A stretch of 64,000 nucleotides of DNA from an uncultured Candidatus Saccharibacteria bacterium (lineage in GTDB: Bacteria; Patescibacteriota; Minisyncoccia; Phycocordibacterales; Zambryskibacteraceae): assembly GCA_964516975.1 (NCBI GenBank), contig CAZFAS010000001.1, positions 118,500 to 182,499 of the forward strand, in the 5' to 3' direction. A program made the position numbers and the translations under genes. The notes beneath the pieces were generated by a model. The model was not told the origin of the DNA and did no database searches. It saw only the letters and a list, made by a program, of their open reading frames with translations. Numbering within the stretch: position 1 is the first letter of the stretch; each line of letters opens with the position of its first letter. Positions 6,074 to 61,027 of this stretch are shown in pieces.

Positions 6074-6105
6074 ACAATACAAAAGCCGCAAACGATGTTT
6101 GCGGC
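6074..6105 (-). terminator. rho-independent terminator (minus strand)
   Basis: GCCGCAAACgatGTTTGCGGC followed on minus strand by TTTTGTATT. Confidence 0.45.
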
Positions 6106-6114
6106 TTTGTTCCC

Positions 6115-6288: not shown

Positions 6289-6480
6289 ACTTGTATCAAT
6301 GAGGAAAGCTCGGCTGTGACGGACGAGGTCACAACGTGCCCATAATCAGGCTGCCCCCCTCTTTTCAAAATAGAATTAGAATAGAGTATAAAGAATACAG
6401 CAATTCTGTTTCAAAAAGATTGGAGGTTCCGATGATGTTATTTCAAAAAACTATATACTATTTATAACATATAAATTGGA

Positions 6481-7010
6481 AAAAGAAAACCCCGCACGCA
6501 AGCGTGCGGGGGTATGTGACAACTTGACTATAGTCCAATGGACATTCACTTGATCGTCACACACAGTTTCAGTACGAAGCAATCGTGTAATCGTCTTTCG
6601 ACAGTATGGGGATCGCTTCGCACCAAGATATGAGACATTGAGGTCTGCGTCTACACAAACAGAGAATCGTCTCATATCAAAAGAGCAGTTCGGGGGAAAA
6701 CATGAGCTGAAACGCTTTTACAAAGCACGAGAGCTCCCGTTCCAGTGACAAATACTACCTCGTAAATCAACATCTCGAATATCGTCACTTCCCCCTTTCT
6801 AAGTTACAGATATATAACCTAGAAAGGAGGCCCGACAAGCAAAGCTTGTCGGGCTTTGCAGAAAACATCAGTATTCTCGTTGTAAAACATTTTGACAATC
6901 GTCTTCTGCCAAAGCAAAATATCATTCTTTATATATAAGTCAACCCCCATACAAGCAAGCTTGTATGGGGGCGTGTGACAATGATTCGGTCGTCGTAGAG
7001 ACATCAAGTC
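6481..7010. repeat. structured direct-repeat unit A (3' of recombinase gene); similarity decays to ~7250
   Basis: ~80% identical to 8575-9190 with indels; contains three perfect hairpins (6489-6510, 6830-6854, 6944-6971) and terminator-like end on minus strand. Confidence 0.7.
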
Positions 7011-7250
7011 CATCGTCACAAAATGAACTATGTTGTAAGACATGACGAAAGCCGTCAGACACGACAAGCATCAATTCGTCTCACAACATACAAAAGAACT
7101 TGACCTGAGAACATTCATACCGTCTTCACTTAGGAAATGAACTCGATCGTTCTCAGATCAATGAAATGTTGTTTTGAGACATTGGGTGAATCGTCACTAA
7201 GACAAACAGCCTATCGTCTCAAAACAAAGAACTTTAAAGTACTACTCGTT

Positions 7251-24629: not shown

Positions 24630-24971
24630 ATGTCTCTTCCAAGTGACATCCGCGCCTACATGGATGAGGCGTTCAAGGTGTCAAAAAAGGAGAAACTCAG
24701 ACTCTGGTCGGCAATCTTCCGAGTTCTCGATCTTCATGGTGTAAGAGACCATGGAGAACGAATGTCAGTAATCAACCAAATCCGAACAGAGCTGGAAAAT
24801 CGTAAAAAAAAGAAGTCCGCACCTCGGACTGCAAAACCTGTCGAACCGCGAGTTCGACAGGAACCACACCCCCACCCTTCACCACGCGAGCGCACTGATT
24901 GGCTCGCGCAGGTCGAGGAGAGGCACGATGAAATCAGTGCTTCTCTTGAAAACAAAGGGCCCGCTACCTAG
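24630..24971 (+). CDS. hypothetical protein
   Basis: 113-aa ORF, basic/Pro-rich C-terminus. Confidence 0.4.
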   Translation: MSLPSDIRAYMDEAFKVSKKEKLRLWSAIFRVLDLHGVRDHGERMSVINQIRTELENRKKKKSAPRTAKPVEPRVRQEPHPHPSPRERTDWLAQVEERHDEISASLENKGPAT

Positions 24972-24990
24972 CGGGCCCTTTTCTATTTCT
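24953..24990. terminator. bidirectional rho-independent terminator
   Basis: GGGCCCGCTacctaGCGGGCCC + TTTTCTATTTCT between convergent genes. Confidence 0.65.
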
Positions 24991-27709
24991 GATACTTTTT
25001 CATTATCTCACCCTCTATTTCGTACCTATCCCTTCCGAACTCCTGATATGAAAGTCGCTTGATCGTCTCAACATCCACATCAGTCTTCGGCGGTGGTGGC
25101 ATTGCCTTCATATTAAACGGCTTTACCGGTTTTCCATTGGCAAGCATTTTTACAAACGCATTGTAATTATCGATGTTTATTATTTCTGAAACAGAAAATA
25201 CAGGCTCAAACTGTTTTACAAGATATTCTGCATCATCAACCCCTACTCGATATGAAATTATAGTACCCACATTTCCAAACACGGCATTCTTGATATTCTC
25301 ATCGAGCTGTCCGATGAACTGATGTGCGATATAGAGAGATAAACGATATTTTCTCGCCTCCGAAAGGATCGTTGCAATAGATGGAGTGGTAATATTCTGA
25401 AACTCATCTATATAGAGATAAAATGGGGGGAAATCTTTTCCGAGCATATCCACTCGTGAAAGTGACGCCATAAGTATCTTTCCAACCAAGATAAGACCGA
25501 TGAGGTTTGCATTGATGTCTCCGAGTCTTCCCTTCGAAAGATTCACGAGGAGGATTTTCTTATTATCCATAATATCGCGGAAGTTAAACGAAGATTTCTC
25601 CTGCGCGATAATCGGACGCATGATCTCATTTGCGAGGAATACATCGAACTTACTTGTGATATATGGCACGATATTTGCAAGAGCTCCTTCCCCGCCAGCT
25701 TTTTCTGCAACTTCATTCCAAAATTGTACGACGATCGGATTTCGACATCGCGATAATTTGAGCTGTCTAAATTCTTTATTTGCGAGCACACGAGAAACAT
25801 CGAGGAGCGTTGAACCCGACTCAGGGTCCTCGATCACGAGCATCGTCGCGTTTCTAAAATACTGTTCGAACATTGGCCCCATTGATTCTGGTACTGCTCC
25901 ATACAGTTTTTGGAAAATACTAAAAAGCTCATTCACTACAAAAGTTTTTTGCTCCGGAAAACGATAATCATACTCGAGCATATTGAGTGCCATCGGCCTA
26001 TCAATAAATGCTGGATCAAAATAGATAACATCTTTCATTCGCTCTGGTGGGACATGTGCTAATACATCCTGAACATCCGATCCATGCGGATCGATCATAC
26101 ATACACCATTACCACGTTCGATGTCCTGAATAATCATATTCTTAAGGAGTGTGGTCTTACCAGTACCTGTTTGTCCGATCGTGTATACATGGCGAAGTCT
26201 ATCTTCATCAGTCAAATACACCTTTGTATCTTGGCCGCGATATGAGTTCACTCCGATAAGGGTTCCAAGCTCAGGAAGCTCATGCGGTGCTGGGGCATAC
26301 CCACTCTTTGCTACCTTGAGCTGACTTGCTCCCTTGAGGGCACTTGTGTGGAAGTGGATAAGAGTAGTGAGTTCTTTAATATTGAGTGGGATAAAATCTG
26401 CCCAATCAAAAGCTCGAAATGCAAATGATCTTATAAACTTCTTCAGCTTTCCACCATTACTGATTCGTGAAAATCGAATACCATTACCCTGCGTCTCATC
26501 GAACTGATTAAAACTCGATTCAAGATCAGCTAAAATACTTTCCGCTCGGTTCTTATCACCGGCAGAAACTACGATCCGAATATTGATAGCACAAATAGGA
26601 CTGCTTAATTTTTTCTGAATTTTTTCTATTGCCTGAGTATCGACTTTCTTCTCTTCTTTTTTTTCATCTTTCTTAGTAGCGCCAAATATAGATTTAAATG
26701 TCTTACCGAGCTCTGTCACAAAAGAATTTTCAGCAGTTGCTTCCTTAGCAGACATGCCTTTTTCTATCTTTTTTATTGCTGATTCATATTTCTGCTTGTA
26801 CGTATCACCCACAGGTCCCATCATCACCTGAAGACATGCTCCCTCACCTTCCTTTTGAATCTTCGAAAAACTATTGAGGATTACATTGAGCGGATCATGA
26901 TCAAAAGACTCATATGTACGCATTTGAAATGCTGGATTTCCGTTCGAATACCCTACTGAACCAAGTGACACGCCTTCTTGGTTGAAGATATTATGATCAT
27001 CATTTTTCTCTGTAACTCGCGCATCATGAAAAATAGATAGGATTTGTTTTTCAAATAAATCCTTTCGTTCATCTGGTACCGCAACATAAAAAATAAACTC
27101 ATCACTACCATTACTATTTGCGATTTCAAGAGTAATATAATCTCGTTTATTATATTCATCACCAGAAATGGATGTCATACCGGCATAAAACTGCTCCATA
27201 CCAGAGATAAGCTCTTTTAACCCTCTTTGCTGTTCATCAGATCCTTGCGGAAGTACTACTTCATAAAGTGTCATGCGAAGTGCTCGTGAAAGTGGAGCTC
27301 TTGTGGGTAATCCTTTAACTTCAAAACCTTTTTTTACATACTGCACGAGAAATCGATGGAAATCATCTTCGACATGAACATCGCCAAGCTTTTCGATAAT
27401 AGCTAAAGTATTCTTTATCCCCTTTTGATTGAGCAAAATTAAAAGTTCATCCATTTTCTTGTCATGTGGTTCAGGAGAAAGATTGAGCGCAAGCGCATGG
27501 ATTGTGTCTTGTGTAAGCGCATGATGAGCATGCAAGATAGTATGAGGCTGTAAATTGTATTCTTTAAGTTTCTCTCCGATAACCTTATCCCGCGAAACTT
27601 CGTTTCCTGATTCACGGAGGAAACGTTCCTGTTTCAATACTTCATTTTTAATATGAGAAATTTCCTCTTCTTTTGTCCGAAGTGATTCCAATCTTGTTTC
27701 TGGTTCCAT
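24983..27709 (-). CDS. large P-loop ATPase of HerA/FtsK/TraD(VirD4)-like superfamily with ~480-aa N-terminal domain of unknown function
   Basis: Walker A GQTGTGKTT then MIDPHGSDV (HerA/AAA_10-like); Walker B ...YLYIDEFQN; C-terminal TraD/TraG-like region. Confidence 0.7.
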   Translation of the reverse strand: MEPETRLESLRTKEEEISHIKNEVLKQERFLRESGNEVSRDKVIGEKLKEYNLQPHTILHAHHALTQDTIHALALNLSPEPHDKKMDELLILLNQKGIKNTLAIIEKLGDVHVEDDFHRFLVQYVKKGFEVKGLPTRAPLSRALRMTLYEVVLPQGSDEQQRGLKELISGMEQFYAGMTSISGDEYNKRDYITLEIANSNGSDEFIFYVAVPDERKDLFEKQILSIFHDARVTEKNDDHNIFNQEGVSLGSVGYSNGNPAFQMRTYESFDHDPLNVILNSFSKIQKEGEGACLQVMMGPVGDTYKQKYESAIKKIEKGMSAKEATAENSFVTELGKTFKSIFGATKKDEKKEEKKVDTQAIEKIQKKLSSPICAINIRIVVSAGDKNRAESILADLESSFNQFDETQGNGIRFSRISNGGKLKKFIRSFAFRAFDWADFIPLNIKELTTLIHFHTSALKGASQLKVAKSGYAPAPHELPELGTLIGVNSYRGQDTKVYLTDEDRLRHVYTIGQTGTGKTTLLKNMIIQDIERGNGVCMIDPHGSDVQDVLAHVPPERMKDVIYFDPAFIDRPMALNMLEYDYRFPEQKTFVVNELFSIFQKLYGAVPESMGPMFEQYFRNATMLVIEDPESGSTLLDVSRVLANKEFRQLKLSRCRNPIVVQFWNEVAEKAGGEGALANIVPYITSKFDVFLANEIMRPIIAQEKSSFNFRDIMDNKKILLVNLSKGRLGDINANLIGLILVGKILMASLSRVDMLGKDFPPFYLYIDEFQNITTPSIATILSEARKYRLSLYIAHQFIGQLDENIKNAVFGNVGTIISYRVGVDDAEYLVKQFEPVFSVSEIINIDNYNAFVKMLANGKPVKPFNMKAMPPPPKTDVDVETIKRLSYQEFGRDRYEIEGEIMKKYQK

Positions 27710-28068: not shown

Positions 28069-28671
28069 ATGCCCGCAGATTTGAATGCGGGCATGATGCC
28101 CGACTTCATACTACCCAACACATTGCGTGAACTACGCGCAATGATCCCCGAAGATCGCTACCTCTCAATCGTTGAAGATGACCTCTCAGATGAATATTTG
28201 AGAGTAAAACTCAAGGAGCTCGAGTGGCTAGCCGAAGTTAGCAGTGATCCAATTCTGCTAACTATTCACTCTGAAGGTGGTCATCTCGGAAGAGCCAGGG
28301 ATATTTCAAGGTTCCTCAGAACAACAGAAGTACCAGTGATCGGTGTCGCAGCACGACATTGCTACTCAAGTGCCTTACTCATCCTACTTGGGTGCAAGTA
28401 CAGAGTAGCGAGCAGTAGTGCGACATTCCTCGTCCACAATCCTGTTGTGAGATTTGCTTTCGAAATCAATGGAAGTGTTACGAGAGCAAAGCTTCACACC
28501 CTTGTTGACTCTGCGTTTGATCATTTCGAGTCGGAGCAACGGGTAGTTCGTGATCTTGTCTCATCATGCTCGTTTCTTGAGCAAGATAAGGTGTTTGAAA
28601 TCATGAACAAAGGAGAAATACTTAGCGCTCAAACTGCATTTGAGTATGGCTTCCTCGATAAGGTGTACTAG
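28069..28671 (+). CDS. ClpP-family (S14-like) serine peptidase homologue
   Basis: ...ILLTIHSEGGHLG...VIGVAARHCYSSALLILLGCKYRVASSSATFLVHNP... aligns to ClpP Ser/His region; slightly GC-enriched. Confidence 0.6.
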   Translation: MPADLNAGMMPDFILPNTLRELRAMIPEDRYLSIVEDDLSDEYLRVKLKELEWLAEVSSDPILLTIHSEGGHLGRARDISRFLRTTEVPVIGVAARHCYSSALLILLGCKYRVASSSATFLVHNPVVRFAFEINGSVTRAKLHTLVDSAFDHFESEQRVVRDLVSSCSFLEQDKVFEIMNKGEILSAQTAFEYGFLDKVY

Positions 28672-28675
28672 CACG

Positions 28676-28707
28676 CGCCGTCCTGCACAGCAGGACGGCG
28701 TTTTTTT
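28676..28707 (+). terminator. rho-independent terminator
   Basis: CGCCGTCCTGCacaGCAGGACGGCG + T7. Confidence 0.7.
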
Positions 28708-28709
28708 AT

Positions 28710-28737
28710 TTGACAAAACAAAATTTGATGATATAAT
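28710..28737 (+). promoter_or_regulatory. sigma70-like promoter (TTGACA-16-TATAAT)
   Basis: directly abuts terminator T-run; drives lipoprotein gene. Confidence 0.55.
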
Positions 28738-28766
28738 TGCTTCAAACGTTCATTCAAGGAGGTAGT

Positions 28767-29141
28767 ATGAAGACCCTGAAGGCAATCCTGTACCTGATCA
28801 CCATCATCGTTCTCGGTGCATGCGGGAATGTGTGGGAACAAGCTCGGTTTGAGCTTGTGATCATCAATCATAGCTCTGATGAGCTCATGATTACGGTCAA
28901 CGGTCGTGCCGTTGATCCCACAACGAAGGGTAATGAGACCCACCGTTACACTCCACGAGTCATCGTGGAGCAGCAGTACTACTACAACAACGGCTACTCG
29001 CCCGAGCCGCCAAAGTGTGCCACCTACATCGATGTTGTTGCGAAGAATCTTCGCAACAACGTACAGGTGCACAAGACCCTCTCAAGGGTCTGTCAGGACG
29101 AGACTCTCTCGCTCGATTTCTATTCGAACGAGTTCAAGTAG
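28767..29141 (+). CDS. small lipoprotein (lipobox LGAC)
   Basis: MKTLKAILYLITIIVLGAC signal/lipobox with AAGGAGG SD; ~52% GC; start at MKTLK not ORF-track start. Confidence 0.55.
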   Translation: MKTLKAILYLITIIVLGACGNVWEQARFELVIINHSSDELMITVNGRAVDPTTKGNETHRYTPRVIVEQQYYYNNGYSPEPPKCATYIDVVAKNLRNNVQVHKTLSRVCQDETLSLDFYSNEFK

Positions 29142-29149
29142 CCCCCGCC

Positions 29150-29192
29150 CCGCCCCGCAAGCTTTGCTTGCGGGGCTTCTTTTATATTTTTA
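29150..29192. terminator. rho-independent terminator
   Basis: CCCCGCAAGCtttgCTTGCGGGG + CTTCTTTTATATTTTT. Confidence 0.55.
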
Positions 29193-29442
29193 CCCCCTCC
29201 TCTCTTAAAAGTTGCAATTTTGTCTTGCCACGTAGGCTATTATACCCGCCCACTTTTCCATCAGAGCGGATCACTCTATGACATGGGACTTTTGTATCGC
29301 TATTTTTCGACAGGATAGTTCCCACTGCCCGTTGTGCATTGGGCCTTCCTGCGATCAATGCAACTTGTTTGTATGTTAATGTCTTCCCTTTTGGAATTTT
29401 CTTCACTACAGCATATACATGTTCTGCAAAAGTTTTATACAT
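29182..29442 (-). CDS. MGMT-family DNA-binding domain protein (O6-alkylguanine-DNA alkyltransferase C-terminal domain, PCHRV)
   Basis: ...KVPCHRVIRSDGKVGGY... active-site motif; only C-terminal domain present (~86 aa). Confidence 0.75.
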   Translation of the reverse strand: MYKTFAEHVYAVVKKIPKGKTLTYKQVALIAGRPNAQRAVGTILSKNSDTKVPCHRVIRSDGKVGGYNSLRGKTKLQLLREEGVKI

Positions 29443-29460
29443 AAAAAAAGTATAACAAAA

Positions 29461-29482
29461 GGCCAGCATTTCTGCTGGCCCA
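29461..29482 (-). terminator. rho-independent terminator (minus strand)
   Basis: GGCCAGCAtttcTGCTGGCC then TTTTGTTATAC on minus strand. Confidence 0.5.
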
Positions 29483-29486
29483 CATA

Positions 29487-29858
29487 CTACTTTTTCCCTT
29501 TCTTACTGAGTTCATCTGCCCGATGATACAGCGCCTTCGCATAGGTGCGAAGCGCACGAGGATTATCGAGTATTCCCGAATTAAGCTTTCGAATATTCTT
29601 GCTGATGACAACAACCATCTTTCGAATGATCTTGTCACCCTCAAGAGAGGTGTACACATGGAAGTGCAGACTCGCAGTATCCTTACTGCGAACAAAGAAA
29701 TCTCTTCGGTCTGGTGAAACTTCCCACACCTTGATAGATTCTCGACCAATCCGAACCTTTCTCACTTGTGGCGAGAGCTGATCATCAAGTTCTCGAGCAA
29801 ACACTTCGTTCGTGTGTGCATCGAGAGGTTCCAAAAACCACAGTCTCTTTCTGCGCAT
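29487..29858 (-). CDS. hypothetical protein
   Basis: 123-aa basic ORF; no family recognised. Confidence 0.4.
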   Translation of the reverse strand: MRRKRLWFLEPLDAHTNEVFARELDDQLSPQVRKVRIGRESIKVWEVSPDRRDFFVRSKDTASLHFHVYTSLEGDKIIRKMVVVISKNIRKLNSGILDNPRALRTYAKALYHRADELSKKGKK

Positions 29859-29932
29859 ATCTCCTCCGAACTTAAGGGTGAAGTTACGATCTAAAAATAC
29901 AATAACACATTATGTAGAATTGTAAAGTATAA

Positions 29933-30547
29933 TTACTGAATGTAACCTTTCATAGCGCGAAACACTCGGTCAGCAATAATCGCATAACCTGCATCATTTG
30001 GATGAACTTCATCTGACATATATTCTTTATGTGCAAAAAGACCATCAAGCACATCGCTCACATACACTGCTCCTGTTTCTTGTGCAAGCTTTGCATATTC
30101 ATCTTCGTAGTGGTCACTGAGGATTCCTCCACGTACACCAAGGAGCACTACCATCACCCCTCTTAATTGAAGCCTACTTATTATGTTTCTTAAATTTTGA
30201 AATGTCTGTGCCTTTGGAACCTTCTTTAAGTAGTCATTCCCACCAAAAAGCAAAATCACTGTGCCAGGACTCCGATCCAGTATATCTTGCACTCGTGATA
30301 ATCCATCTGATGATGTCTCTCCAGAGACCCCAAGGTTTATAATCGGCTTACCGAGTTTCTCTGCTAGTAGCGATACGAAACCTCTATCTTGAGTTGCACC
30401 ATATCCAACTACAAGACTATCTCCAAATGCAACGATCGTGGCATTTCTTGGTGGGTAATTTTTTATATTTTGTTTTCTTGGTATAAAAAAATATATTCCC
30501 AAAATAAGAGCAAGTACAAAAATAATTACAATATACTTTCTATTCAT
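29933..30547 (-). CDS. SGNH/GDSL-family hydrolase (arylesterase-like), membrane-anchored
   Basis: blocks FGDSL, GGNDY, DxxHP. Confidence 0.75.
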   Translation of the reverse strand: MNRKYIVIIFVLALILGIYFFIPRKQNIKNYPPRNATIVAFGDSLVVGYGATQDRGFVSLLAEKLGKPIINLGVSGETSSDGLSRVQDILDRSPGTVILLFGGNDYLKKVPKAQTFQNLRNIISRLQLRGVMVVLLGVRGGILSDHYEDEYAKLAQETGAVYVSDVLDGLFAHKEYMSDEVHPNDAGYAIIADRVFRAMKGYIQ

Positions 30548-30616
30548 ATCACAATTCTACAGTAAATTTTTGAATACAAAACAGCCCATCTGCGTAGCAG
30601 ATGGGCTGTACAATTT

Positions 30617-31390
30617 CTATACTAAAGACAAAGCGGCTTGTGCCTTGTCGATCTCTTCATAAGTACGCAAGACAGCTTCACGTGGATCCTTCGCTTGTGT
30701 AATGGGTCTTCCCACTACAATACGGTCAGCTCCAGCGAGCATTGCCTGCTCAGGTGTCATAATCCGTGACTTATCTTGATCATCACCCTCAACAATAGAC
30801 CATGCTGGCCGAATTGCAGGAGTGATAATCTCTGTGACAGTCGGAATAAGATCACGAATGAGCCTTGCTTCTTGTGCAGAACACACAAAACCAGTGAGTC
30901 CTGCCTGAGAAGCAGAAAATGCAAGATTTTGCACTGCAGTCTGAATGGTTGCATTATGAATCATCCGCGACTCTCTCTCACCAATTGCAGTGAGCACCGT
31001 CACACCAAGGACAATCGTACTTGGCAATTCATCCTTGAGCGCTTTGATTGAAGCTTGTCCAGCATTACACATCACAGTGACAAAATCTGGAGCAATTGTA
31101 TCGAGCCCCAAGAACCTTGCATCATTTCGAAGTGTCGCAGGGATATCGCACAACTTCAGATCTGCGAAGAATTTATTTCCGCCCTGCTCAACTATTGCAG
31201 ATAACTCTCGAATCATCGCATATCCGAAAAACCTGATGACAGAATTGAATTTCAAAATGACACCAGTTCCATCGAGCGATTCGATGATTCGATTTATGTC
31301 TGAAACAATCTCACCCGTACTGTTGTAATTCGATGGGTCGATGTCAATGGCGACTATGAGTCGCTCATTTGGCTCCAAGACCTTTCGCAT
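30617..31390 (-). CDS. pyrF: orotidine 5'-phosphate decarboxylase
   Basis: IVAIDI..., KLCDIP, GRPIT motifs. Confidence 0.85.
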   Translation of the reverse strand: MRKVLEPNERLIVAIDIDPSNYNSTGEIVSDINRIIESLDGTGVILKFNSVIRFFGYAMIRELSAIVEQGGNKFFADLKLCDIPATLRNDARFLGLDTIAPDFVTVMCNAGQASIKALKDELPSTIVLGVTVLTAIGERESRMIHNATIQTAVQNLAFSASQAGLTGFVCSAQEARLIRDLIPTVTEIITPAIRPAWSIVEGDDQDKSRIMTPEQAMLAGADRIVVGRPITQAKDPREAVLRTYEEIDKAQAALSLV

Positions 31391-31405
31391 ACGCTGTCTC
31401 CTCAG

Positions 31406-32071
31406 TTAGTAGCGCGCGTTTAAGCGCTGCCAGTTGTCGTTGTGCTTCGGACGAAGCGCCTCAGAACCCTGCAAACACAGTGGGCAAATTTCACTCACCC
31501 ATGTCGGCATGGAGCGATCGATAAGAGCAATGATTTTCTTTCCGTTTACTTCAGAAAGTCCTGTCCGATTCACAAGAACGAGAACGAAAGGAAGACACTT
31601 TGCATCAAGGCCTTTTACCGCCTTCACAACAAGGTCAACGCTTCTCCCAGTAGTAAGAACATCTTCCGCAAGGAGAACATTATGTGCATCCTTGATCGAT
31701 GTCTTGTTGAAATACATGCCGCCATCTTCAGTTTTTTCTGTATATGCACGCGAGCAAGGGTATCTACGGCGTTTGCTGATACGTCTTGCGATCTCATGCA
31801 CAAGAGTGATTGCTCCCATGGCAGGTCCGACAACACAATCAACGCTATCTAAATCAAACGATTGATTTTCTAGAGCCTGGACAAGCGCCCCACATGCATC
31901 CTCAAGCAACAGTGGATCACGCATTACTTCTTCACTATTGAAGAACCCCGATGAATGCAGACCTGATCGCAATAGTGCATGTGGCCTGCTCGGATTACCG
32001 TCATGAATCCACAGTGCACCCCTTTTTTCATATGCGTCGATCCACTCGTTCTCAATGTCTTGCAAAATCAT
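31406..32071 (-). CDS. pyrE: orotate phosphoribosyltransferase
   Basis: PRTase motif VLLAEDVLTTG; promoter TTGACC-17-TAATGT and CAGGAGGA SD upstream. Confidence 0.85.
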   Translation of the reverse strand: MILQDIENEWIDAYEKRGALWIHDGNPSRPHALLRSGLHSSGFFNSEEVMRDPLLLEDACGALVQALENQSFDLDSVDCVVGPAMGAITLVHEIARRISKRRRYPCSRAYTEKTEDGGMYFNKTSIKDAHNVLLAEDVLTTGRSVDLVVKAVKGLDAKCLPFVLVLVNRTGLSEVNGKKIIALIDRSMPTWVSEICPLCLQGSEALRPKHNDNWQRLNARY

Positions 32072-32162
32072 GCATCCTCCTGTGTATAGATTTGTACAAC
32101 AATGAACTGCAAACCCCGAAACACATTAGTAGAAATACCCAATTTGGTCAATATAAACAAAA

Positions 32163-32205
32163 ACCCCGTACCATAGAAGCACGGGGCTTGATGGTACGGG
32201 GTAAC
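32163..32205 (-). terminator. rho-independent terminator with alternative stems
   Basis: CCCCGTAC...GTACGGGG with nested CCCCGT/ACGGGG option, T5 on minus strand. Confidence 0.5.
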
Positions 32206-32208
32206 GCA

Positions 32209-32427
32209 CTAACAGTTCGGTGGCGAGAGAGCGAGCTGCTTCTCGGCCAAATCAAAGCCGAGATTGTAGGAAGCACTGCGTCCGTCTTCACGGGCGCAAT
32301 ACGCTGCAGCTATGAAACGCCCTGCGTAATACTCCCGCAGGGCAATCGTGAATGCCAAACCTTTTTCAACGGTCTCGGGACACCCGTTCAGATGCCCGAC
32401 CTCTTCCTCGCAGTACTTGCACTTCAT
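32209..32427 (-). CDS. small Cys-rich (zinc-ribbon-like) protein
   Basis: 72 aa, MKCKYCEEEVGHLNGCPE..., ~58% GC. Confidence 0.4.
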   Translation of the reverse strand: MKCKYCEEEVGHLNGCPETVEKGLAFTIALREYYAGRFIAAAYCAREDGRSASYNLGFDLAEKQLALSPPNC

Positions 32428-32562
32428 GTGCGCTCCAGGTTAAAGAACTGACAATATAGTAGCATATTATATACAAAATGTCAATCTACATTATCGTGGC
32501 TAATTACACTTTATAAAATCAAGTAGATTTTTTGCTATATTTTGCTATTCTTCATTCCACAT

Positions 32563-32610
32563 GGCCCTATCGTCTAACGGTCATGATTGGACTCTCAAGC
32601 GCTTAAGAGG
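32563..32610 (+). pseudogene. degenerate 5' fragment of a tRNA-Glu-like gene
   Basis: first 19 nt identical to tRNA-Glu at 32744, D and anticodon stems no longer pair. Confidence 0.45.
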
Positions 32611-32629
32611 GGTGAGAAGCGAACACTTG

Positions 32630-32720
32630 GAGCTTCGCAAGACCGGAGCGCGACGGCGCGAGGTATGGTCAGGAGCAAAGTCAGCAGACTTTGACTCATG
32701 ACCGATGAACCGGAATCGGG
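32630..32720 (+). repeat. GC-rich structured repeat E1
   Basis: ~80-nt similarity to 32880-32977 incl. CGCG-ACGG-CGCG hairpin and AAAGTC-agca-GACTTT stem. Confidence 0.5.
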
Positions 32721-32743
32721 TTTTAATAATTTATGTTTATATT

Positions 32744-32818
32744 GGCCCTATCGTCTAACGGTTAGGACAAGGCCTTCTCAAGGCTTAAATCGGGGTTCGA
32801 TTCCCCGTAGGGTCACCA
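32744..32818 (+). tRNA. tRNA-Glu (anticodon CUC), CCA encoded
   Basis: cloverleaf: acceptor GGCCCTA/TAGGGTC, D GTCT/GGAC, anticodon loop TTCTCAA, T arm CGGGG-TTCGATT-CCCCG, discriminator A. Confidence 0.85.
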
Positions 32819-38245: not shown

Positions 38246-39127
38246 TTACTTTTTCTCGATAATTCTTAATTTCGCACTTCTTGATCTTGGGTTTACTGCT
38301 ACTTCTTCGTCACTTGGCACGATCGGCTTCTTCGTTACAAGGACTGCGAGATCTGTATCTGACCAAGCTCTGAACATATGTTTTACAATTCGATCTTCAA
38401 GGCTGTGAAATGAAATTGCTGCTATTCTTCCTTTTGGTCTGAGCGCAGTAAACGCTTTTGTTAGTCCATCTTGTATAGACTCGAGCTCATCATTTACTGT
38501 TATACGTAACGCTTGAAATGTTCGAGTCGCAGGATGGATCTTTCCATGTTTAGATTTGGCAGGCACTGCTCCGACAATAATGTCTACCAGTTGCCCAGTG
38601 GTGCGTATTGGTTTTATTTCTCGAGCTTTTACTATTGCCCTTGAAATCTTCCCCGCAAAACGTTCTTCACCGTACCCACGAATGATATGTCGGATGTTCT
38701 CTTCATCCCACTCATTCACAATCTCCTGCGCGGTGAAACCGGAGTGATTTTTCCCAAATGTCATAAGGAGAGGTTCATCTCTTTGAAATGAAAATCCTCT
38801 TCCTGATTCTTCGAGTTGATTTGACGAGAGGCCAAAATCAAAAATCACTTTATCCACATTCGACAGACGAAGGTTCTCGAGGATTGTATCAAGGTTTCGA
38901 AATGAATCATTTACATACGTGATGTTTGTAAATTCTTTCAGTCTCTCCTTACTCCTTTCGATAGCATCGGGGTCAAGATCAATCCCGATAATGTTAACCT
39001 TCTTTCCAAGACGCGCGATTGATTCGGTATGCCCCCCGTTTCCGAGAGTGCCATCAACCACGGTGTTGTCGTCTTGAATGTCGAGCCCATCTAACACTTC
39101 ATGTAAAAGAACTGATGTGTGCACCAT
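38246..39127 (-). CDS. rsmH: 16S rRNA (cytosine1402-N4)-methyltransferase RsmH (MraW)
   Basis: SAM motif VDGTLGNGGH; start at MVHTSVL (39127) to avoid overlap with mraZ; longest ORF to 39259. Confidence 0.85.
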   Translation of the reverse strand: MVHTSVLLHEVLDGLDIQDDNTVVDGTLGNGGHTESIARLGKKVNIIGIDLDPDAIERSKERLKEFTNITYVNDSFRNLDTILENLRLSNVDKVIFDFGLSSNQLEESGRGFSFQRDEPLLMTFGKNHSGFTAQEIVNEWDEENIRHIIRGYGEERFAGKISRAIVKAREIKPIRTTGQLVDIIVGAVPAKSKHGKIHPATRTFQALRITVNDELESIQDGLTKAFTALRPKGRIAAISFHSLEDRIVKHMFRAWSDTDLAVLVTKKPIVPSDEEVAVNPRSRSAKLRIIEKK

Positions 39128-39131
39128 ACAT

Positions 39132-39590
39132 TTATATAACTCCCATTCCTCCAAGCTTTTCTGCCATTGAATCCGCTTGTTTTTCAATAACAGTGCGCTT
39201 CTCCGACCAATCTTTTTCATTCCATATTTCGATTCGATCGTAGAGTCCTGCAAAAACAACTTTGCTTTTGAGAGAAGCGAAATCTCGGAGAAAATCAGGA
39301 ATAAGAATTCTTCCGATTGTATCTACCTCGACTTCTACTGCTCCAGAAAGCATGAATCGTCCGAAGTCACGATTATCACGGTGCCCCATGGGTAACTTAC
39401 CAAGTGTCTTTGCAATTTCTTCCCACGCTTTTGTCGGATACACAAGAAGACACGCATCAGGACTTTTTGTTATTACAATTTTTTTCCCGAGATCTTTTCT
39501 GAATCGTGAAGGTAATGAGATTCTTTTTTTCTCATCAACCGTATGCGTATATTCTCCAATAAACATTGTTGCGTAGTGAAGAAAAAGCAT
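39132..39590 (-). CDS. mraZ: transcriptional regulator MraZ
   Basis: duplicated DxxxR-type halves (DEKKRISLPSRFRK...). Confidence 0.85.
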   Translation of the reverse strand: MLFLHYATMFIGEYTHTVDEKKRISLPSRFRKDLGKKIVITKSPDACLLVYPTKAWEEIAKTLGKLPMGHRDNRDFGRFMLSGAVEVEVDTIGRILIPDFLRDFASLKSKVVFAGLYDRIEIWNEKDWSEKRTVIEKQADSMAEKLGGMGVI

Positions 39591-39692
39591 ATCCCACTTC
39601 TTCCCACTTGATAGTAAGTATAGAACACTTCATCCCACTTCCCTACAATTTTTATCCACTTTTTTGGTGAACTGTAGTTCTTTTGTATATTT

Positions 39693-39733
39693 TTTTAAAA
39701 AAGAAAATAGCCTCGCGCTTTGCGCGAGGCTAT
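39693..39733 (-). terminator. rho-independent terminator (minus strand)
   Basis: TAGCCTCGCGCtttgCGCGAGGCTA + T-run on minus. Confidence 0.6.
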
Positions 39734-39742
39734 CCAACGGAG

Positions 39743-40390
39743 CTACTTCTTCTTCGGGACCCAAGTGAGTCCCATGTACCACATGTCTGTCCTCTTGTTC
39801 ACGTTGCGTGTCCAAGAAGATGTCACGGAAACTTCTTCCGTCATCGGTACCGTAAGTGCTACTGACGGAAGCGTGTTCCATGGAAGGTCGAGGAAGTTCA
39901 GCTTGGCGTAGCCAAGCGTTACCCATCGATACGAAAGGGAAACATCACCCAGATATCCGATGAGTAACGTCTCCGGATTCTGGACACCATCTTCCCTGAA
40001 TGACTTCGGTTCATAGGCCGGATACCACGCTGGCCACTGCATCGTCGAGACCTTGATCTCGTCACTACCGATCTTCGCGACCGGAACAGTGAGCCTGACG
40101 TACGGCCCAACCCAGGGCGAACCCTGGTAGTGACCGACAGACCATGCGATGAAACCAGTCAGCTTGCGTCCATGAAGATTCTTCCCCATGGCAAGCCACG
40201 CCTGCTCCTGCATGACAGCGAACTCCCCATATTCAGAGGAATCCGCTTTCTCGAAGATTACGATACCGGTGATTCCTGATGCGATGGCGCCTTCGCCAGC
40301 ACCAACGCTGACAGAAGACACACGGCGCTGGGCAGACGCGCCACTCACGCCGACCAAAAGCATCATGACAACCGCAAGAATGGTGCGCAT
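39743..40390 (-). CDS. secreted hypothetical protein (signal peptide), GC-rich island
   Basis: MRTILAVVMMLLVGVSGASAQ signal; W/Y-rich; ~55% GC. Confidence 0.5.
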   Translation of the reverse strand: MRTILAVVMMLLVGVSGASAQRRVSSVSVGAGEGAIASGITGIVIFEKADSSEYGEFAVMQEQAWLAMGKNLHGRKLTGFIAWSVGHYQGSPWVGPYVRLTVPVAKIGSDEIKVSTMQWPAWYPAYEPKSFREDGVQNPETLLIGYLGDVSLSYRWVTLGYAKLNFLDLPWNTLPSVALTVPMTEEVSVTSSWTRNVNKRTDMWYMGLTWVPKKK

Positions 40391-40473
40391 CCCCCTTCCC
40401 CCTTGGATTTGAAGTTAAGATACAAACAAAGAACAGTACTACTTATATATCATAAAATATTTATTAAGTCAAG

Positions 40474-40506
40474 TAAGAAAAAGCCGGTTCATTTCTGAAC
40501 CGGCTC
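40474..40506 (-). terminator. rho-independent terminator (minus strand)
   Basis: AGCCGGTTCAtttcTGAACCGGCT + T-run on minus. Confidence 0.6.
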
Positions 40507-40514
40507 TCCTACAA

Positions 40515-41117
40515 CTAGAAGCTAAGTCGCAATGCAGCGACCGAATTACGCGACCCCTTAACTTCAGGATCAAACGCAACCGGCACTGCCCACAACATCA
40601 CACGCTTCTTTGAGAATACAACTTGGACACGAGGTCCAACACCAGCGAAACGCTGGGCACGAACACCGAGTCCAATGTTGTTGATTCCATTCAAAGTATC
40701 TGAATGGGTCAAAACATTGTTGTTCTGTTCGAGCAAATACCAATAACCCGAACCTCCCAACTCAGTGGCGAGATACAGCGAGTGCACCCCTTTCGCCATG
40801 AAGGCTGACGCCTGCATGCGCAAGGGGTTAACATCGCTCTCCACACCTCCTCCGATACTCAGCTCGATCCATGTAGCGGGAACGTAGGTCATCCCCACGA
40901 TCCCCTCGCTCCATGTATTTGAACTGAGTGACCAGATGAACACCTTCAAGTGTTCATTGATCTTGTGCTCACCAGAGATATCCACCTGAGTGGACATCTT
41001 GTGGGACTTTGCATTATACAAGTTATAGCTCTCTGTCCAGAACGAATTCCGAGACTGAGCTTCAACATTGCATACTGCTCCCAGCATGAGTGCCACAAAG
41101 GCGAAGATTCTCAACAC
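40515..41117 (-). CDS. secreted hypothetical beta-rich protein ending in C-terminal Phe (outer-membrane-barrel-like signature)
   Basis: signal MLRIFAFVALMLGAVCNVEAQ; alternating hydrophobic strands; ...VAALRLSF end. Confidence 0.5.
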   Translation of the reverse strand: MLRIFAFVALMLGAVCNVEAQSRNSFWTESYNLYNAKSHKMSTQVDISGEHKINEHLKVFIWSLSSNTWSEGIVGMTYVPATWIELSIGGGVESDVNPLRMQASAFMAKGVHSLYLATELGGSGYWYLLEQNNNVLTHSDTLNGINNIGLGVRAQRFAGVGPRVQVVFSKKRVMLWAVPVAFDPEVKGSRNSVAALRLSF

Positions 41118-41232
41118 TGTCGTATCCTCTTTGTAAGTGAAAGAACTAACCGTGCTAGTATTATACCATAAATATTACATAATTGTCAAGTATGAAAAAG
41201 ACGTCTTGATATGTACCAAGACGTCTTGTTGC

Positions 41233-41451
41233 CTACCCAGGATTTTCGTTGTAACCACAGTTGTTACACCGATGAGACCTTACATCCAGCAATGACCCAC
41301 ATTTGGGACATGAAACTGGCTCTGGCTTCGGCCTTGGGATTCCATGATGGATTTCCGCTCCGCAATGCGGACATTTTCTCAGATTTCCCTTTTCAAAGTT
41401 TCTCTTGCACGTGCAGTAATACACTGCCATATCTCCCCCCGGAAAGGACAA
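41233..41451 (-). CDS. small zinc-ribbon protein
   Basis: four CxxC pairs in 72 aa. Confidence 0.4.
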   Translation of the reverse strand: MSFPGGDMAVYYCTCKRNFEKGNLRKCPHCGAEIHHGIPRPKPEPVSCPKCGSLLDVRSHRCNNCGYNENPG

Positions 41452-41487
41452 AGCTGATACTAGTGAAAACTGAATATAAAATCAAGT

Positions 41488-41524
41488 CAAAAAAATAGCA
41501 TCGTACAAATTTTGTACGATGCTA
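41488..41524 (-). terminator. rho-independent terminator (minus strand)
   Basis: AGCATCGTACAAAtTTTGTACGATGCT with A/T runs. Confidence 0.55.
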
Positions 41525-41713
41525 CTTACTAACAGTACTTCTCAAGTACTCCTGCAACTCGCGCATCACCTTTTCATGGTTCATGTGAAGAAGGCCTCTC
41601 AGCTGAACCAGCCTCCGCTGGTCTACATCAGGCAATTCATCCTCTCTCACACCATTAACCATGATCTTACCGTATTCAAGGAGGAGTTTCCTCTTGAATT
41701 CCTCGTTTCGCAT
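41522..41713 (-). CDS. small hypothetical protein
   Basis: 63-aa ORF. Confidence 0.3.
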   Translation of the reverse strand: MRNEEFKRKLLLEYGKIMVNGVREDELPDVDQRRLVQLRGLLHMNHEKVMRELQEYLRSTVSK

Positions 41714-41767
41714 GCGACCTCCGAGTTGTCCTCACAGCACAATAACACAAATTCGGATAAACGCAAA

Positions 41768-42202
41768 TTATTGCGTTTCAAGATTGTTTGCCCGCGTCAA
41801 TGTAAGTCTAAGAGCGAATTGGCCACATGCATTCCTAGATTCAGCGTTTGGAAGTACCGCACTCACATCTTCAAGTTTCTTCCCAGCTTTTATGGCATTT
41901 CTTATAAAAATTCGGATAGTATCCTGTGTTGCGGTGTGAGTGATGCTTCTTTGTTCATCTTTTATTGCATGCTCCTCACCTCTACCCTCCGTCTCAAGTG
42001 TAGAAAGATGATCCACTACACTCTTTGTATACCGCAAACACTGATCAAGAAGATCTTCCAATAATTCTTGTAAATTTTCATCACCTTCTGCTAATGCGTT
42101 TAGTTTTTCAAGTGGCACCATCCACGAAGTACTATCCATATCAAATCCTTCACGAAGTGGTTCTATCTCTTTTACTGTTTCATCAGGTAACTCAAAATGC
42201 AT
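41768..42202 (-). CDS. acidic hypothetical protein
   Basis: 144-aa ORF. Confidence 0.4.
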   Translation of the reverse strand: MHFELPDETVKEIEPLREGFDMDSTSWMVPLEKLNALAEGDENLQELLEDLLDQCLRYTKSVVDHLSTLETEGRGEEHAIKDEQRSITHTATQDTIRIFIRNAIKAGKKLEDVSAVLPNAESRNACGQFALRLTLTRANNLETQ

Positions 42203-42207
42203 ATATG

Positions 42208-43686
42208 TTAATTATCTTTAGGTTTTAATGTTGGAAATAGTATCACTTCCTTAATATTCTTCACATCAGTAAGTAACATTGCGAGTCTATCTATTCCGAT
42301 ACCAATCCCTCCATTTGGTGGCATGCCGTATTCCATTGCTTCAAGATATACTTCGTCAGACGGTGATATCTCGGATTCACCTTTTTTACCTTTTTTCTCT
42401 TCCTCAAGATATCGAGCTTTCTGATCAAGAGGATTATTCGTCTCAGAAAAAGCATTTACAAGCTCTACTCCCCCGACGACAAGCTGAAATCTATCGATAA
42501 GTGTAGGATCATCTTCCTTACGCTTTGCGAAAGGATTCATTGCAACAGGATAATCAACAATAAATGTAGGCTGAACAAGCTTAGGGCGAGCTGTCTTTTT
42601 ATAAATGTTATCCATGATTTTTTCGAGTGCCTCCTCTGGTTCAACTTTTACTCCAAGTTGTTGTGCGCGAATTGCAGCGTCTTCACGAGTCAGTGTCTCT
42701 GGATTTGGAATAAGTGCATGCCGGCGTAATAGATCATAAAAAGTAACAACAGCAAATTTTTTGCTAAAATCGATTGTCTGTTCGTCGTACACGATCTTAC
42801 TTTTACCAAACAACTTTTTCACAACATACTTAAAGAGTTCCTCGATAAAGTCTCGCTGATCCTGTGCATCTGCATATGCTTCATTTGACTCAAGCATTGT
42901 GAACTCAGGATTATGTGTTGTATCGATACCTTCGTTTCGAAATCTTCTACCTATTTCATACACCTTGGTAAACCCACCACCAAGCAGTTCTTTCAAATAT
43001 AACTCTTGCGCGATAGGAAGATAAAAGTCCATATCAAGAGCATTATGATGTGTCACAAAAGGTTTAGCTGTTGCTCCTCCAGCTAGCGGTTGGAGTTGTG
43101 GTACTTCGACCTCAAGAAACCCTTTATCATTATAAAAGTTGCGAATTTCTTGAATCATCTTGATTCGAAGAATAAATCTTTGCTTCACTTCTTCGCTCAT
43201 GAGTGTATCGAGATACCGACGCCTGAATCTTTCCTCGACATCTTGAAGTCCGTGCCACTTTTCAGGAAGAGGTCTTAGTCCCTTTGCAAGCATGCGCCAC
43301 TTAGAAACCTGAACGGTCTTCTCATTTCTTTTTGTCACGAACAGTGAGCCTTTTACTTCTACGAAATCCCCGATATCGAGCGTTTCATTGAGCAAGTCAA
43401 AATCTGCATCGCTAATCTTCTCCCCCTTTTTTACAAGTGCTTGAAATTTCTCAGTACCATCTGAAAAATGAAAAAACACGAGACCACCTTGAGGCCGTAG
43501 TGACATGACTCTTCCTACAAGGTAATACTCTTTCTTTTTTGCTTTTGATAGCTTATTAAAATTCTTAACAACCTCTGAAAGTTCAAAATCTCTTTTTGTT
43601 GTGGTTGGGAATGCATTAATACCCTTCTCTTCGAGCTTCTGCAATTTCTCTAGTCGTATATTTCTAATTTCTTCAAGTGAAGACAT
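42208..43686 (-). CDS. lysS: lysine--tRNA ligase (class II)
   Basis: N-terminal OB fold, class II motifs 1-3 (...FRNEGIDTTHNPEFTMLE..., ...GIGIDRLAML...). Confidence 0.9.
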   Translation of the reverse strand: MSSLEEIRNIRLEKLQKLEEKGINAFPTTTKRDFELSEVVKNFNKLSKAKKKEYYLVGRVMSLRPQGGLVFFHFSDGTEKFQALVKKGEKISDADFDLLNETLDIGDFVEVKGSLFVTKRNEKTVQVSKWRMLAKGLRPLPEKWHGLQDVEERFRRRYLDTLMSEEVKQRFILRIKMIQEIRNFYNDKGFLEVEVPQLQPLAGGATAKPFVTHHNALDMDFYLPIAQELYLKELLGGGFTKVYEIGRRFRNEGIDTTHNPEFTMLESNEAYADAQDQRDFIEELFKYVVKKLFGKSKIVYDEQTIDFSKKFAVVTFYDLLRRHALIPNPETLTREDAAIRAQQLGVKVEPEEALEKIMDNIYKKTARPKLVQPTFIVDYPVAMNPFAKRKEDDPTLIDRFQLVVGGVELVNAFSETNNPLDQKARYLEEEKKGKKGESEISPSDEVYLEAMEYGMPPNGGIGIGIDRLAMLLTDVKNIKEVILFPTLKPKDN

Positions 43687-43790
43687 GTTCGGACTCTTAT
43701 CTATTAATACTATATGGTAAATAGTAGCACAAAAAAGCGTGTAGACATGGCTCTACAATAATGGGACCTTAAAGCAAACTTGGAACGAGA

Positions 43791-60467: not shown

Positions 60468-61027
60468 GTCGGAAAGTTCGTGGTATAATTGCTTGGTGTA
60501 TACCAAGAAAAAAAGATTAGAAAAATGAACTTACGCCGACCGTCGAGCATATATGGTAATGGCAGTAACAAGGAGAAGAAGAAAACTCCGTGAGATGGCC
60601 AGAGAACAAGCCGGCGGAAAATGTGCATTATGTGGCTACAAAAAATGTCAGAGGGCTTTAAGCTTTCATCACGTAAACCCTAAAAATAAGGATTTTGATC
60701 TTTCTTCAAGGGGTTTAACGAGATCGTGGGAACGTATTAAAAAGGAAATCGAAAAATGCGTTCTCTTGTGTGCAAATTGTCACATGGAAGTACATGAAGG
60801 CATTACGCAGCTTTCTATCAAAAGATAGATTGAAAAACGAGGTGAATTCGGGGAAACCCAATTATTGGGCAATCCCGAGCCAAGCTCTAATGAAAGTTGG
60901 AGAAGGTGTAGAGACTATCCTTTATGGAGTAGTGTCAAAAACTTGATACGAAGCGCCTCGATCCTAAGTTCCAGATTGGAATATGGATATGATATAGTCC
61001 ACGCTTCTAGCAATAGAAGAATCAGTG
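60468..61027 (+). mobile_element. group I intron (560 nt) with internal HNH homing-endonuclease ORF
   Basis: 5' exon ends in U, intron ends in G; conserved core elements P (AATTCGGGGAAA), Q (AATCCCGAGC), R (GTAGAGACTATCC), S (GATATAGTCCAC). Confidence 0.7.
60553..60828 (+). CDS. HNH endonuclease (intron-encoded)
   Basis: CxxC...HH..N...CxxCH zinc/HNH motif (CALCGY...SFHHVNPKNK...CANCHMEVH); extended -10 TGGTATAAT at 60477. Confidence 0.75.
   Translation: MVMAVTRRRRKLREMAREQAGGKCALCGYKKCQRALSFHHVNPKNKDFDLSSRGLTRSWERIKKEIEKCVLLCANCHMEVHEGITQLSIKR

Follow-up and report, generated by a model that had tools for sequence, protein, structure and literature searches.

The small 12-stranded porins KdgM and NanC (PDB 4pr7, 2wjr, 8xua) are the described proteins that a structure search finds to resemble orfA and orfB, two neighbouring genes of an uncultured, ultra-small Candidatus Saccharibacteria bacterium; further structural matches are FapF, the beta-domains of autotransporters and of intimin, a COG4313 channel and a designed 12-strand transmembrane barrel. 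Both genes lie on the minus strand, orfA at 39743..40390 and orfB at 40515..41117, of a stretch of 64,000 nucleotides (contig CAZFAS010000001.1), here called the window, and all positions given below refer to it. In this organism, a prediction of 12-stranded barrels is unexpected: accounts of envelope evolution treat the Patescibacteria, or Candidate Phyla Radiation (CPR), as monoderm bacteria whose porins were lost, and they also concede that the envelopes of most members have never been described.

In the published record, the Patescibacteria, a phylum now also called Minisyncoccota (PMC13293708), are described as monoderm, and the CPR is counted among the clades without porins and outer-membrane tethers (PMC12857230; bioRxiv 10.1101/2021.05.31.446380; 10.1101/2022.09.22.508938). 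BamA/Omp85 is reported as lost in the CPR (bioRxiv 10.1101/2021.05.31.446380). The architecture of CPR envelopes is essentially undescribed (PMC8871954); an 'outer layer' is labelled in cryo-electron tomography of one Saccharibacterium (PMC11880426), and some species are reported to have S-layers (PMC13293708). In full-text searches on the envelopes of CPR, Patescibacteria and Saccharibacteria, we found no paper describing proteins of the kind considered here.

An earlier note on this DNA had read the region 39600-41500 as a GC-rich island coding for two secreted beta-rich proteins and a zinc-ribbon protein, and had proposed that it was acquired horizontally or belonged to a mis-binned contig. 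The three minus-strand open reading frames (ORFs) are indeed found where it placed them: orfA, orfB and orfC. The best reading of the data is that orfA and orfB stand for two native families of membrane-type beta-barrels in a phylum described as monoderm, and that they are probably strongly expressed.

The two barrel proteins and their families

The gene orfA (family A) codes for 215 amino acids, and orfB (family B), which starts at a GTG codon, for 200. Their N-termini are, respectively, MRTILAVVMMLLVGVSGASA and MLRIFAFVALMLGAVCNVEA, each followed by Q, with signal peptidase cuts predicted between ASA and Q and between VEA and Q. The signal peptides announced by the earlier note are borne out by a simple heuristic rule, satisfied by 42 of 45 members of the orfA family and 15 of 17 members of the orfB family; ORF lengths and signal peptides are kept throughout both families. 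Both proteins would leave the cytoplasm through the Sec pathway, and signal peptidase I would remove their signal peptides. Mature orfA has 194 amino acids and a mass of 21.6 kDa, mature orfB a mass of 19.9 kDa, and neither contains cysteine. The richness in tryptophan is real: this residue accounts for 3.9% of orfA and orfB, compared with 0.8% in housekeeping genes.

In the AlphaFold2 models, the signal helix is followed by 12 antiparallel strands of 7-17 residues, joined in both proteins by short turns, mostly of 2-7 residues; the exception is a low-confidence loop at residues 124-142 of orfA. The alignments behind these models are shallow, with 18 sequences for orfB and 7 for orfA. The best orfB model reaches a predicted local distance difference test score (pLDDT) of 89.0 and a predicted template-modelling score of 0.79, and the five models span 85.8-89.0; the best pLDDT for orfA is 79.4. 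The strands of the orfB model cover ~134 of the 180 mature residues (~75%). Each protein would form a 12-stranded antiparallel barrel of the outer-membrane-protein (OMP) type, compact and with hardly any loops.

The distribution of residues along the strands is consistent with this fold. When Kyte-Doolittle alternation in the strands is averaged over each family, it is matched by 0 of 2000 shuffles for orfB and by 63 of 2000 for orfA: the alternating hydrophobic pattern that had been claimed for both genes holds at the level of the families, and falls short of significance for orfA taken as a single sequence. One face of the strands is rich in V, L and I, and the opposite face in G, S, T and N, with few charges. 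The aliphatic face would point outward, because the lumen of a 12-strand barrel that has no plug cannot be filled by aliphatic side chains.

Family B has an invariant E-x-GGSGYWY turn and conserved charges of the lumen type, E93, R100 and E119. Its representative in the window ends, as the earlier note stated, in ...VAALRLSF; among the 17 family members, 10 end in F, Y or W, and 8 in the motif Phi-x-Phi-x-[FYW]. An aromatic C-terminus is found in 14 of 43 distant members of the orfA family. We also observe some 50 remoter clusters of this family, of ~190-210 amino acids, whose signal peptides are in the style of AT-rich genomes (MKK...FAQ); many of them end in classical OMP-like fashion (...YKF, ...YTF, ...YNF), and they may or may not be linked to true diderm OMP families.

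Profile searches do not connect these proteins with any named family. Pfam yields no match for orfA or orfB at E <= 1, and none of its models, including that of KdgM, matches any of 62 family members (18 + 44) at E <= 0.01. Searches of orfA and orfB against NCBIfam and PHROGs give no match, and profile searches against the PDB are empty. Nor do the two genes behave as paralogues of each other: BLASTP is empty, hhalign reports a probability of 12% that concerns the signal peptide only, and no protein appears in the match lists of both hidden Markov models. As modelled, orfA and orfB are two new families of a known fold. An enzymatic barrel similar to OMPLA, LpxR or PagP finds no support: in an alignment of 44 sequences, the invariant residues of orfA are Gly, Pro and Trp, and His87 varies.

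Conservation, synteny and base composition

Searching 1.84 billion proteins yields about 100 representative clusters of the orfA family, 60 of them at E <= 1e-10, and a profile search for the orfB family yields 18 clusters, including proteins named Candidatus Pacebacteria and Candidatus Yanofskybacteria. In genome collections, the matches are to Patescibacteria in 5 of 5 metagenome-assembled genomes (with labels Saccharibacteria, Paceibacterota and Minisyncoccia), and all named matches of the barrel families are Patescibacteria. Hainich groundwater samples labelled '01um' are the source of several metagenome matches. A distant member of the orfA family lies on a small contig labelled Aenigmarchaeota. 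The viral and plasmid collections IMG/VR, INPHARED and PLSDB contain no relatives of either family.

The genes also keep their place. In the window, every gene between lysS (42208..43686) and mraZ (39132..39590) is on the minus strand, as these two are, in the order orfE, orfD, orfC, orfB, orfA. The conserved boundary of the barrel cassette on its upstream side is lysS; mraZ, recognised by Pfam MraZ on its orthologues and by synteny, is its conserved downstream neighbour and heads the division and cell wall (dcw) cluster, which continues as mraZ-rsmH-ftsL-ftsI-murE. We compared the window with a set of loci numbered L001, L002 and so on, where L002 comes from a close strain. Directly downstream of orfA, we find mraZ in the window and in L001, L011, L012 and L016, while in L006/L007 orfB stands between orfA and mraZ. 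The downstream flank of these loci is always rsmH-ftsL-ftsI-murE; the upstream flank, where it is visible, is greA/lysS in L001, L006 and L012, and uvrB in L011. The FtsI proteins of the conserved loci are 56-68% identical to that of the window. The gene orfB adjoins orfA in the window, L001, L006/7, L012 (as a divergent copy) and L028.

Elsewhere, barrel genes sit among other housekeeping genes. One such site, the second that recurs, lies downstream of dnaG-rpoD (L028 4563-9337 and, for a distant member, L039 888-6914). In L028 it holds an orfA and orfB pair of 60% GC in a background of 38%; in L039, the distant orfA-family gene has 35.7% GC for a background of 34.1%, almost no excess, and a Cys-rich ORF of 80 amino acids lies next to it.

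Protein-level selection can be read from pairs of genomes. The ratio of nonsynonymous to synonymous divergence (dN/dS) is 0.085 for orfA and 0.10 for orfB when compared with L002, and 0.16-0.25 when compared with more diverged relatives: orfA and orfB are real protein-coding genes under purifying selection. The alternative that this DNA is a structured non-coding RNA rather than genes was discarded on these ratios, which span 0.09-0.25, on the conserved ORF lengths, and on the lack of any Rfam match at gathering score.

What drew attention to the locus is its composition. The mean GC content of the window is 40.9%, and the region 39600-41500 has 47.9%, compared with 40.7% in the remainder. The gene orfA has 54.8% GC, with a GC content at third codon positions (GC3) of 0.64, and orfB has 49.8%, with a GC3 of 0.58; orfC has 47.9%, orfD 46.4%, and orfE, at 39.8%, is host-like. 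The earlier figures of ~55% for all three genes and ~38% for the background are accurate for orfA, and too high for orfB and orfC, while the background is ~41%. The richest segment of 600 base pairs has a GC fraction of 0.557, which is 3.9 standard deviations over the window mean and is equalled by one other region only, 5150-5900. Intergenic spacers have 29-38% GC, and 34-38% inside the claimed island: the island is thus not a single GC-rich block, but a series of GC-rich coding sequences.

Such an atypical composition, with a GC3 of 0.57-0.64 in the barrel genes for a background of ~0.30, is what recently acquired DNA or a chimeric or mis-binned contig would produce, and barrels of this fold normally occur in diderm bacteria, so that a Gram-negative donor would be the natural source. 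Five further diverged lineages, however, conserve the genes, their site and their GC excess. Where a locus offers 2.5 kb or more of background, the barrel genes exceed the GC content of that locus in 31 of 31 cases; the excess averages 11.7 points, varies from +3.6 to +21.8 and has a Wilcoxon p of 9e-10. The earlier note had itself set the same GC bias in all relatives against its proposal, and this is the bias that we find. Moreover, the GC content of the barrel genes climbs with that of the background (r 0.47), which is not expected from a single donor composition. Between the window and L001 or L006, synonymous sites are saturated (dS > 1.3 or incalculable) and the GC3 of the barrel genes is still 0.59-0.69; the bias is thus maintained, and not left over from a transfer. 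High GC would then be a property intrinsic to these genes rather than a sign of foreign origin.

The DNA around the genes leads to the same conclusion. The AT-rich spacers hold promoters and terminators of native type, and the borders, from 39000 to 43700, contain no mobility gene, tRNA or direct repeat. Among the assemblies of NCBI, JGI and Logan, 8 contigs carry the exact orfA protein, and one of these reaches 186,651 bp; four JGI contigs and one Logan contig also repeat the gene order, so that the junctions are reproduced by independent assemblies. A phage origin was also considered and is not supported: besides the lack of relatives in the viral collections, fold matches in BFVD are limited to generic phage-borne OMP barrels with a TM-score <= 0.55. 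Taken together, the evidence refutes the idea of a transfer or of mis-binning. Of the envelope genes that had been cited as the sign of a simple envelope, DsbA and VKOR are present in the window, the penicillin-binding proteins match genes annotated as Pfam PBP/transpeptidase in relatives, and MreB is so named by its sources.

Expression signals, messenger folding and neighbouring genes

All the signals described here are on the minus strand. Upstream of orfB, at 41189-41160, lies a perfect promoter of the extended sigma-70 type, TTGACA-18-TATAAT with TG; it matches the consensus at 12 of 12 positions and is the sole such site found by a promoter scan in 39000-42400. Its Shine-Dalgarno sequence reads AAAGAGGA (41132-41125). 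For orfA, a promoter-like site TTGACT...TATATA was read by eye at 40472-40442 and was not called by the scan; it is followed by a strong Shine-Dalgarno arrangement, AAGGGGGAAGGGGG-ATG (40404-40388), with ribosome-binding site GGGGGAAGGGGG.

The claim that each gene has its own terminator is confirmed: behind orfA, orfB, orfC and orfD alike there is a hairpin (-17 to -23 kcal/mol) with a U-tract. The intrinsic terminator of orfA (39735-39697) has a 13-pair stem in the minimum free energy (MFE) fold, or 14 pairs in a separate scan, and -23.4 kcal/mol; that of orfB (40508-40475) has a 13-pair MFE stem, of which 10 pairs are perfect, a GAAA loop, and -20.5 kcal/mol. The terminator of orfC (41230-41192) owes its 13-pair stem to two copies of the palindromic CAAGACGTCTT and has a U-tract and -17.4 kcal/mol, and the hairpin behind orfD (41527-41488) has -20.1 kcal/mol. 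The genes orfA to orfD look like separate, strongly signalled transcription units: each barrel gene would have its own sigma-70 promoter close to consensus, and both its ribosome-binding site and its terminator would be strong. Judging from these signals, the barrel genes are probably strongly expressed.

Their codon usage sets them apart. At fourfold-degenerate sites, the GC content is 0.50 in barrel genes, 0.26 in housekeeping genes, and 0.255 in the pooled genes of ribosomal proteins, ribosome recycling factor (RRF) and GreA. The shift concerns nearly all codon families: A-ending codons make up 14%, compared with 33%, and AAG, CAG, ATC and TTC each represent 0.86-0.92 of their own family. 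Since the genes that serve as proxies for high expression resemble the bulk and do not have the codon usage of the barrel genes, we rejected ordinary translational selection as the origin of the GC excess.

The messengers are also unusually folded. Transcript MFE, compared with dinucleotide shuffles, gives z-scores of -6.2 for orfA and -11.5 for orfB. When the coding sequences are compared with synonymous-codon shuffles, the scores are -7.9 and -8.4, for +0.1 and +0.7 in two control genes; with shuffles restricted to 25-codon blocks, which alter only 10-12% of the bases, they are -2.7 and -6.4, for +0.2 and +1.1 in the controls. Homologues in eight other lineages have folding z-scores of -1.0 to -5.2. 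We looked for a conserved RNA element in the barrel coding sequences and found no support for one: the alifold consensus is only of -25 to -51 kcal/mol, with z-scores no better than those of a greA control. The positions of the pairings vary between homologues; base-pairing in general, rather than a defined RNA element, seems to be what is kept.

This property extends beyond the two genes. In the window, GC3 correlates with the folding z-score across 57 genes (Spearman -0.53, p 2e-5), and the median score is -4.1 for genes with GC3 >= 0.44, compared with -0.5 for the others; genes that are both GC3-rich and highly base-paired seem to make up a class that spans the genome. The most over-folded genes in that comparison are a lipoprotein gene at 28737-29141 (-6.3), orfB (-6.25) and the gene at 24630-24971 (-5.6). 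The gene mraZ (39132-39590) has a host-like GC content and yet is over-folded, with a z-score of -6.1, or -4.2 with block shuffling; its over-folding recurs in L001, L011, L012 and L016, with scores of -2.2 to -5.7.

The GC excess of the barrel genes lies at synonymous sites. We infer that it may reflect selection for stable messages: the choice of codons ending in G and C builds an unusually base-paired mRNA, which would make the message stable and its expression strong. Mutation or recombination, for example by GC-biased gene conversion, is another candidate cause. In the comparison with L002, the barrel coding sequences are 90-95% identical between the two strains, and the flanks 98-99%; dS is 0.19-0.28 in the barrel genes and 0.05-0.11 in the flanks, a ratio of 2-5, and dN is 0.016-0.028 and 0-0.003, respectively. 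There is thus accelerated evolution or recombination relative to L002, confined to orfA and orfB.

We now turn to the neighbours, also on the minus strand. The gene orfC (41233..41451) codes for a small double zinc-ribbon protein. The four CxxC pairs attributed to it come down to three, CPHC, CPKC and CNNC, the fourth being the CxC motif CTC. It matches the Pfam profile Zn_ribbon_3 (PF13248) with 30.2 bits, for a cut-off of 27, and the double zinc ribbon profile DZR (PF12773) with 25.8 bits, under the cut-off of 27.3; as in proteins of those families, it carries two Cys4-type knuckle pairs. The start ATG at 41430 (65 amino acids) appears more likely than the TTG at 41451 (72 amino acids), because it is preceded by the Shine-Dalgarno sequence GGGGGGAG. 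At the equivalent position, L001 has a homologue with 41% identity, and L006/L007 one of 37 amino acids that consists of the second ribbon alone. A zinc ribbon adjoins the barrel genes in 3 of the 6 lineages that share the lysS-mraZ arrangement (the window, L001 and L006/7); it is a recurrent companion of theirs, which need not imply a functional link.

The two remaining genes, orfD (41522..41713, 63 amino acids) and orfE (41768..42202, 144 amino acids, acidic), have no family match. The former is also called in JGI assemblies of the source organism, and no homologue of it was seen in the diverged relatives; both are found only in assemblies of the source organism itself. They share a reading frame, with two stop codons within 18 codons separating orfE from orfD, and they may be one decayed gene or two small genes. 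The idea that together they form a split homologue of a 234-amino-acid gene of L006 was abandoned, as no similarity was found.

Other regions of the window deserve a mention. A second GC-rich patch, 4558-8441, contains the ORF 5191-5904, whose 56.5% GC and GC3 of 0.75 are the maximum of the window; neither this ORF nor 4558-5046 has a Pfam, NCBIfam or PHROG family, and a gene similar to IS110-family transposases lies at 7251-8441 (Transposase_20, E 2.6e-8). Unlike the barrel locus, this patch looks like a mobile or acquired island. Identity to L002 falls from ~98% to ~50% at roughly 33100, just past a tRNA-Glu (32744-32818). The strain-specific block 28069-32818, to be compared with L002 7300-11384, has several genes with raised GC3: it includes a ClpP-like gene (28069-28671), the lipoprotein gene 28737-29141 (GC3 0.66), 29487-29858, and a Cys-rich ORF of 72 amino acids (32209-32427, GC3 0.62). 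A group I intron is found at 60768-61020 (Rfam RF00028, 64 bits), with no rRNA match in the window and no tRNA match nearby; its 5' end overlaps the small, Cys-rich ORF 60553-60828. The region 10193-13751 codes for a MacB-type ABC exporter and a membrane-fusion protein of the HlyD family (510 amino acids); adaptors of the HlyD type provide, in diderm bacteria, the link to a barrel in the outer membrane. Finally, a VirD4/TraG-like type IV coupling protein (908 amino acids) is encoded at 24983-27709.

Location of the barrels and known counterparts

The explanation that we favour as a whole, and hold to be reasonably probable, is that orfA and orfB are native, vertically inherited genes for OMP-type barrels that reside outside the cytoplasmic membrane. 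That they are native, conserved proteins of OMP fold is its firmest part, and we regard it as highly probable; that the barrels sit within a lipid layer belonging to the cell's own envelope is a tentative step, on which we lean slightly towards doubt. Under the favoured explanation, genes placed just upstream of the dcw cluster would supply small monomeric barrels to a lipid-containing layer outside the cytoplasmic membrane, where their most likely role would be that of diffusion channels or envelope anchors. This layer would belong either to the cell itself or to an attached host.

Several observations weigh against this explanation. The phylum is described as monoderm, with its porins lost (PMC12857230; bioRxiv 10.1101/2021.05.31.446380), and thus neither a membrane nor an insertion machinery is known for such barrels. 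The fold is a prediction; the orfA model was built on 7 sequences, and two of its five versions are poor, with pLDDT of 55 and 35. The outward orientation of the aliphatic face is deduced from geometry, and alternation in the single sequence of orfA is not significant. The core of the orfA family has an aromatic C-terminus in 3 of 45 members only, the typical end being ...G-x-T-W-x-P-x-x-K with a polar tail, and both mature proteins are basic, with isoelectric points of 8.8 and 9.2. On the side of expression, high levels are deduced from sequence signals only, the pooled ribosomal-protein, RRF and GreA genes do not share the codon usage of the barrel genes, and the mRNA pairings, besides being variable in position, have a weak alifold consensus that a control gene equals.

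The rival that survives best, although we think it distinctly unlikely, is that the barrels act in the outer or cytoplasmic membrane of the host, opening a channel through which the epibiont takes up metabolites. Hosts supply Patescibacteria with nucleotides, lipids and amino acids, and a membrane of the cell's own that is able to hold such barrels is not known (PMC12857230). The barrels are minimal, strands making up about three quarters of mature orfB and extramembrane domains being absent, and between close strains their genes diverge 3-5 times faster than the flanks, as interface proteins often do. However, we have no evidence for release from the cell and see no toxin-like or oligomerising features, intercellular delivery of monomeric OMP-type barrels is not known, and broadly conserved genes that stand where the dcw cluster begins suit a housekeeping role in the envelope at least equally well.

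Somewhat less likely again is that orfA and orfB form soluble lipid-binding barrels of the wall or periplasm, comparable to LolA, LppX or FABP, that scavenge host lipids. The hydrophobic face would then line the interior of the barrel, and the argument from the plug-less lumen given above would place it on the outside.

There is also the possibility that the barrel is an over-interpretation by AlphaFold of beta-rich wall proteins, in fact sandwiches or open sheets, while the GC and RNA features are real and reflect, for example, a structured RNA that overlaps an ORF. The shallow alignments and the poor orfA models lend themselves to this idea, as does an RNA folding that is exceptionally strong for a coding region. 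We consider it improbable: two families unrelated in sequence arrive independently at one 12-strand topology, all five orfB models fall within the narrow range of scores given above, selection acts on the protein, and neither Rfam nor the positions of the pairings reveal a structured RNA. As for recently acquired or mis-assembled DNA with barrels from a Gram-negative donor, the evidence of the second section makes it very improbable.

A bolder and rather unlikely extension is that at least one large clade of Patescibacteria is not plainly monoderm: it would have a lipid outer layer, its own or borrowed from the host, with abundant 12-stranded barrels that assemble in the absence of the canonical beta-barrel assembly machinery (BAM), and the synonymous sites of their genes would be tuned towards highly base-paired, long-lived messages. 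Under this extension, the orfA and orfB families would be the first envelope beta-barrels of the CPR, and they would bear on how the Terrabacteria lost, or partly kept, their outer membranes. Stable messages would suit cells in need of abundant envelope proteins. The two genes offer a clonable handle on two questions: whether these organisms have an outer lipid layer or an interface with the host membrane, and whether OMP-type barrels can assemble without BAM. For those who scan genomes, the lesson is that, in these genomes, what stands out as a GC-rich 'island' may be a native gene that maintains its own regime of codon usage and RNA structure; compositional tests for horizontal transfer would flag it wrongly.

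How, then, do these proteins compare with known barrels? Like KdgM and NanC, orfA and orfB are predicted to be 12-stranded antiparallel barrels of ~200 residues. They differ in sequence, with 6-13% identity in structural alignments and no match to the family profile (Pfam PF06178 for KdgM), and in the organisms that encode them, which are Patescibacteria rather than Proteobacteria. [quoted passage not shown] In comparison with the 12-stranded barrels assembled by BAM (autotransporter beta-domains, FapF, intimin, COG4313), orfA and orfB have no passenger or plug domain, and the orfA family differs from BAM substrates by the polar tail behind its last aromatic residue. Among the 25 ORFs scanned in the 64 kb of the window, none matches Omp85 or POTRA in Pfam.

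The last comparison is with the Omp-beta protein of the Thermotoga toga and the OmpM proteins of diderm Firmicutes, a comparison that extends, for orfA and orfB, to the PDB search. Those proteins are larger and carry S-layer homology (SLH) or coiled-coil tethers, and Pfam finds no SLH domain in orfA, orfB or the members of their families. They are likewise beta-barrels in unconventional outer layers of Terrabacteria: within this clade, which contains the CPR, barrels without a classical lipopolysaccharide outer membrane have a precedent (bioRxiv 10.1101/2022.09.22.508938; 10.1101/2021.05.31.446380).

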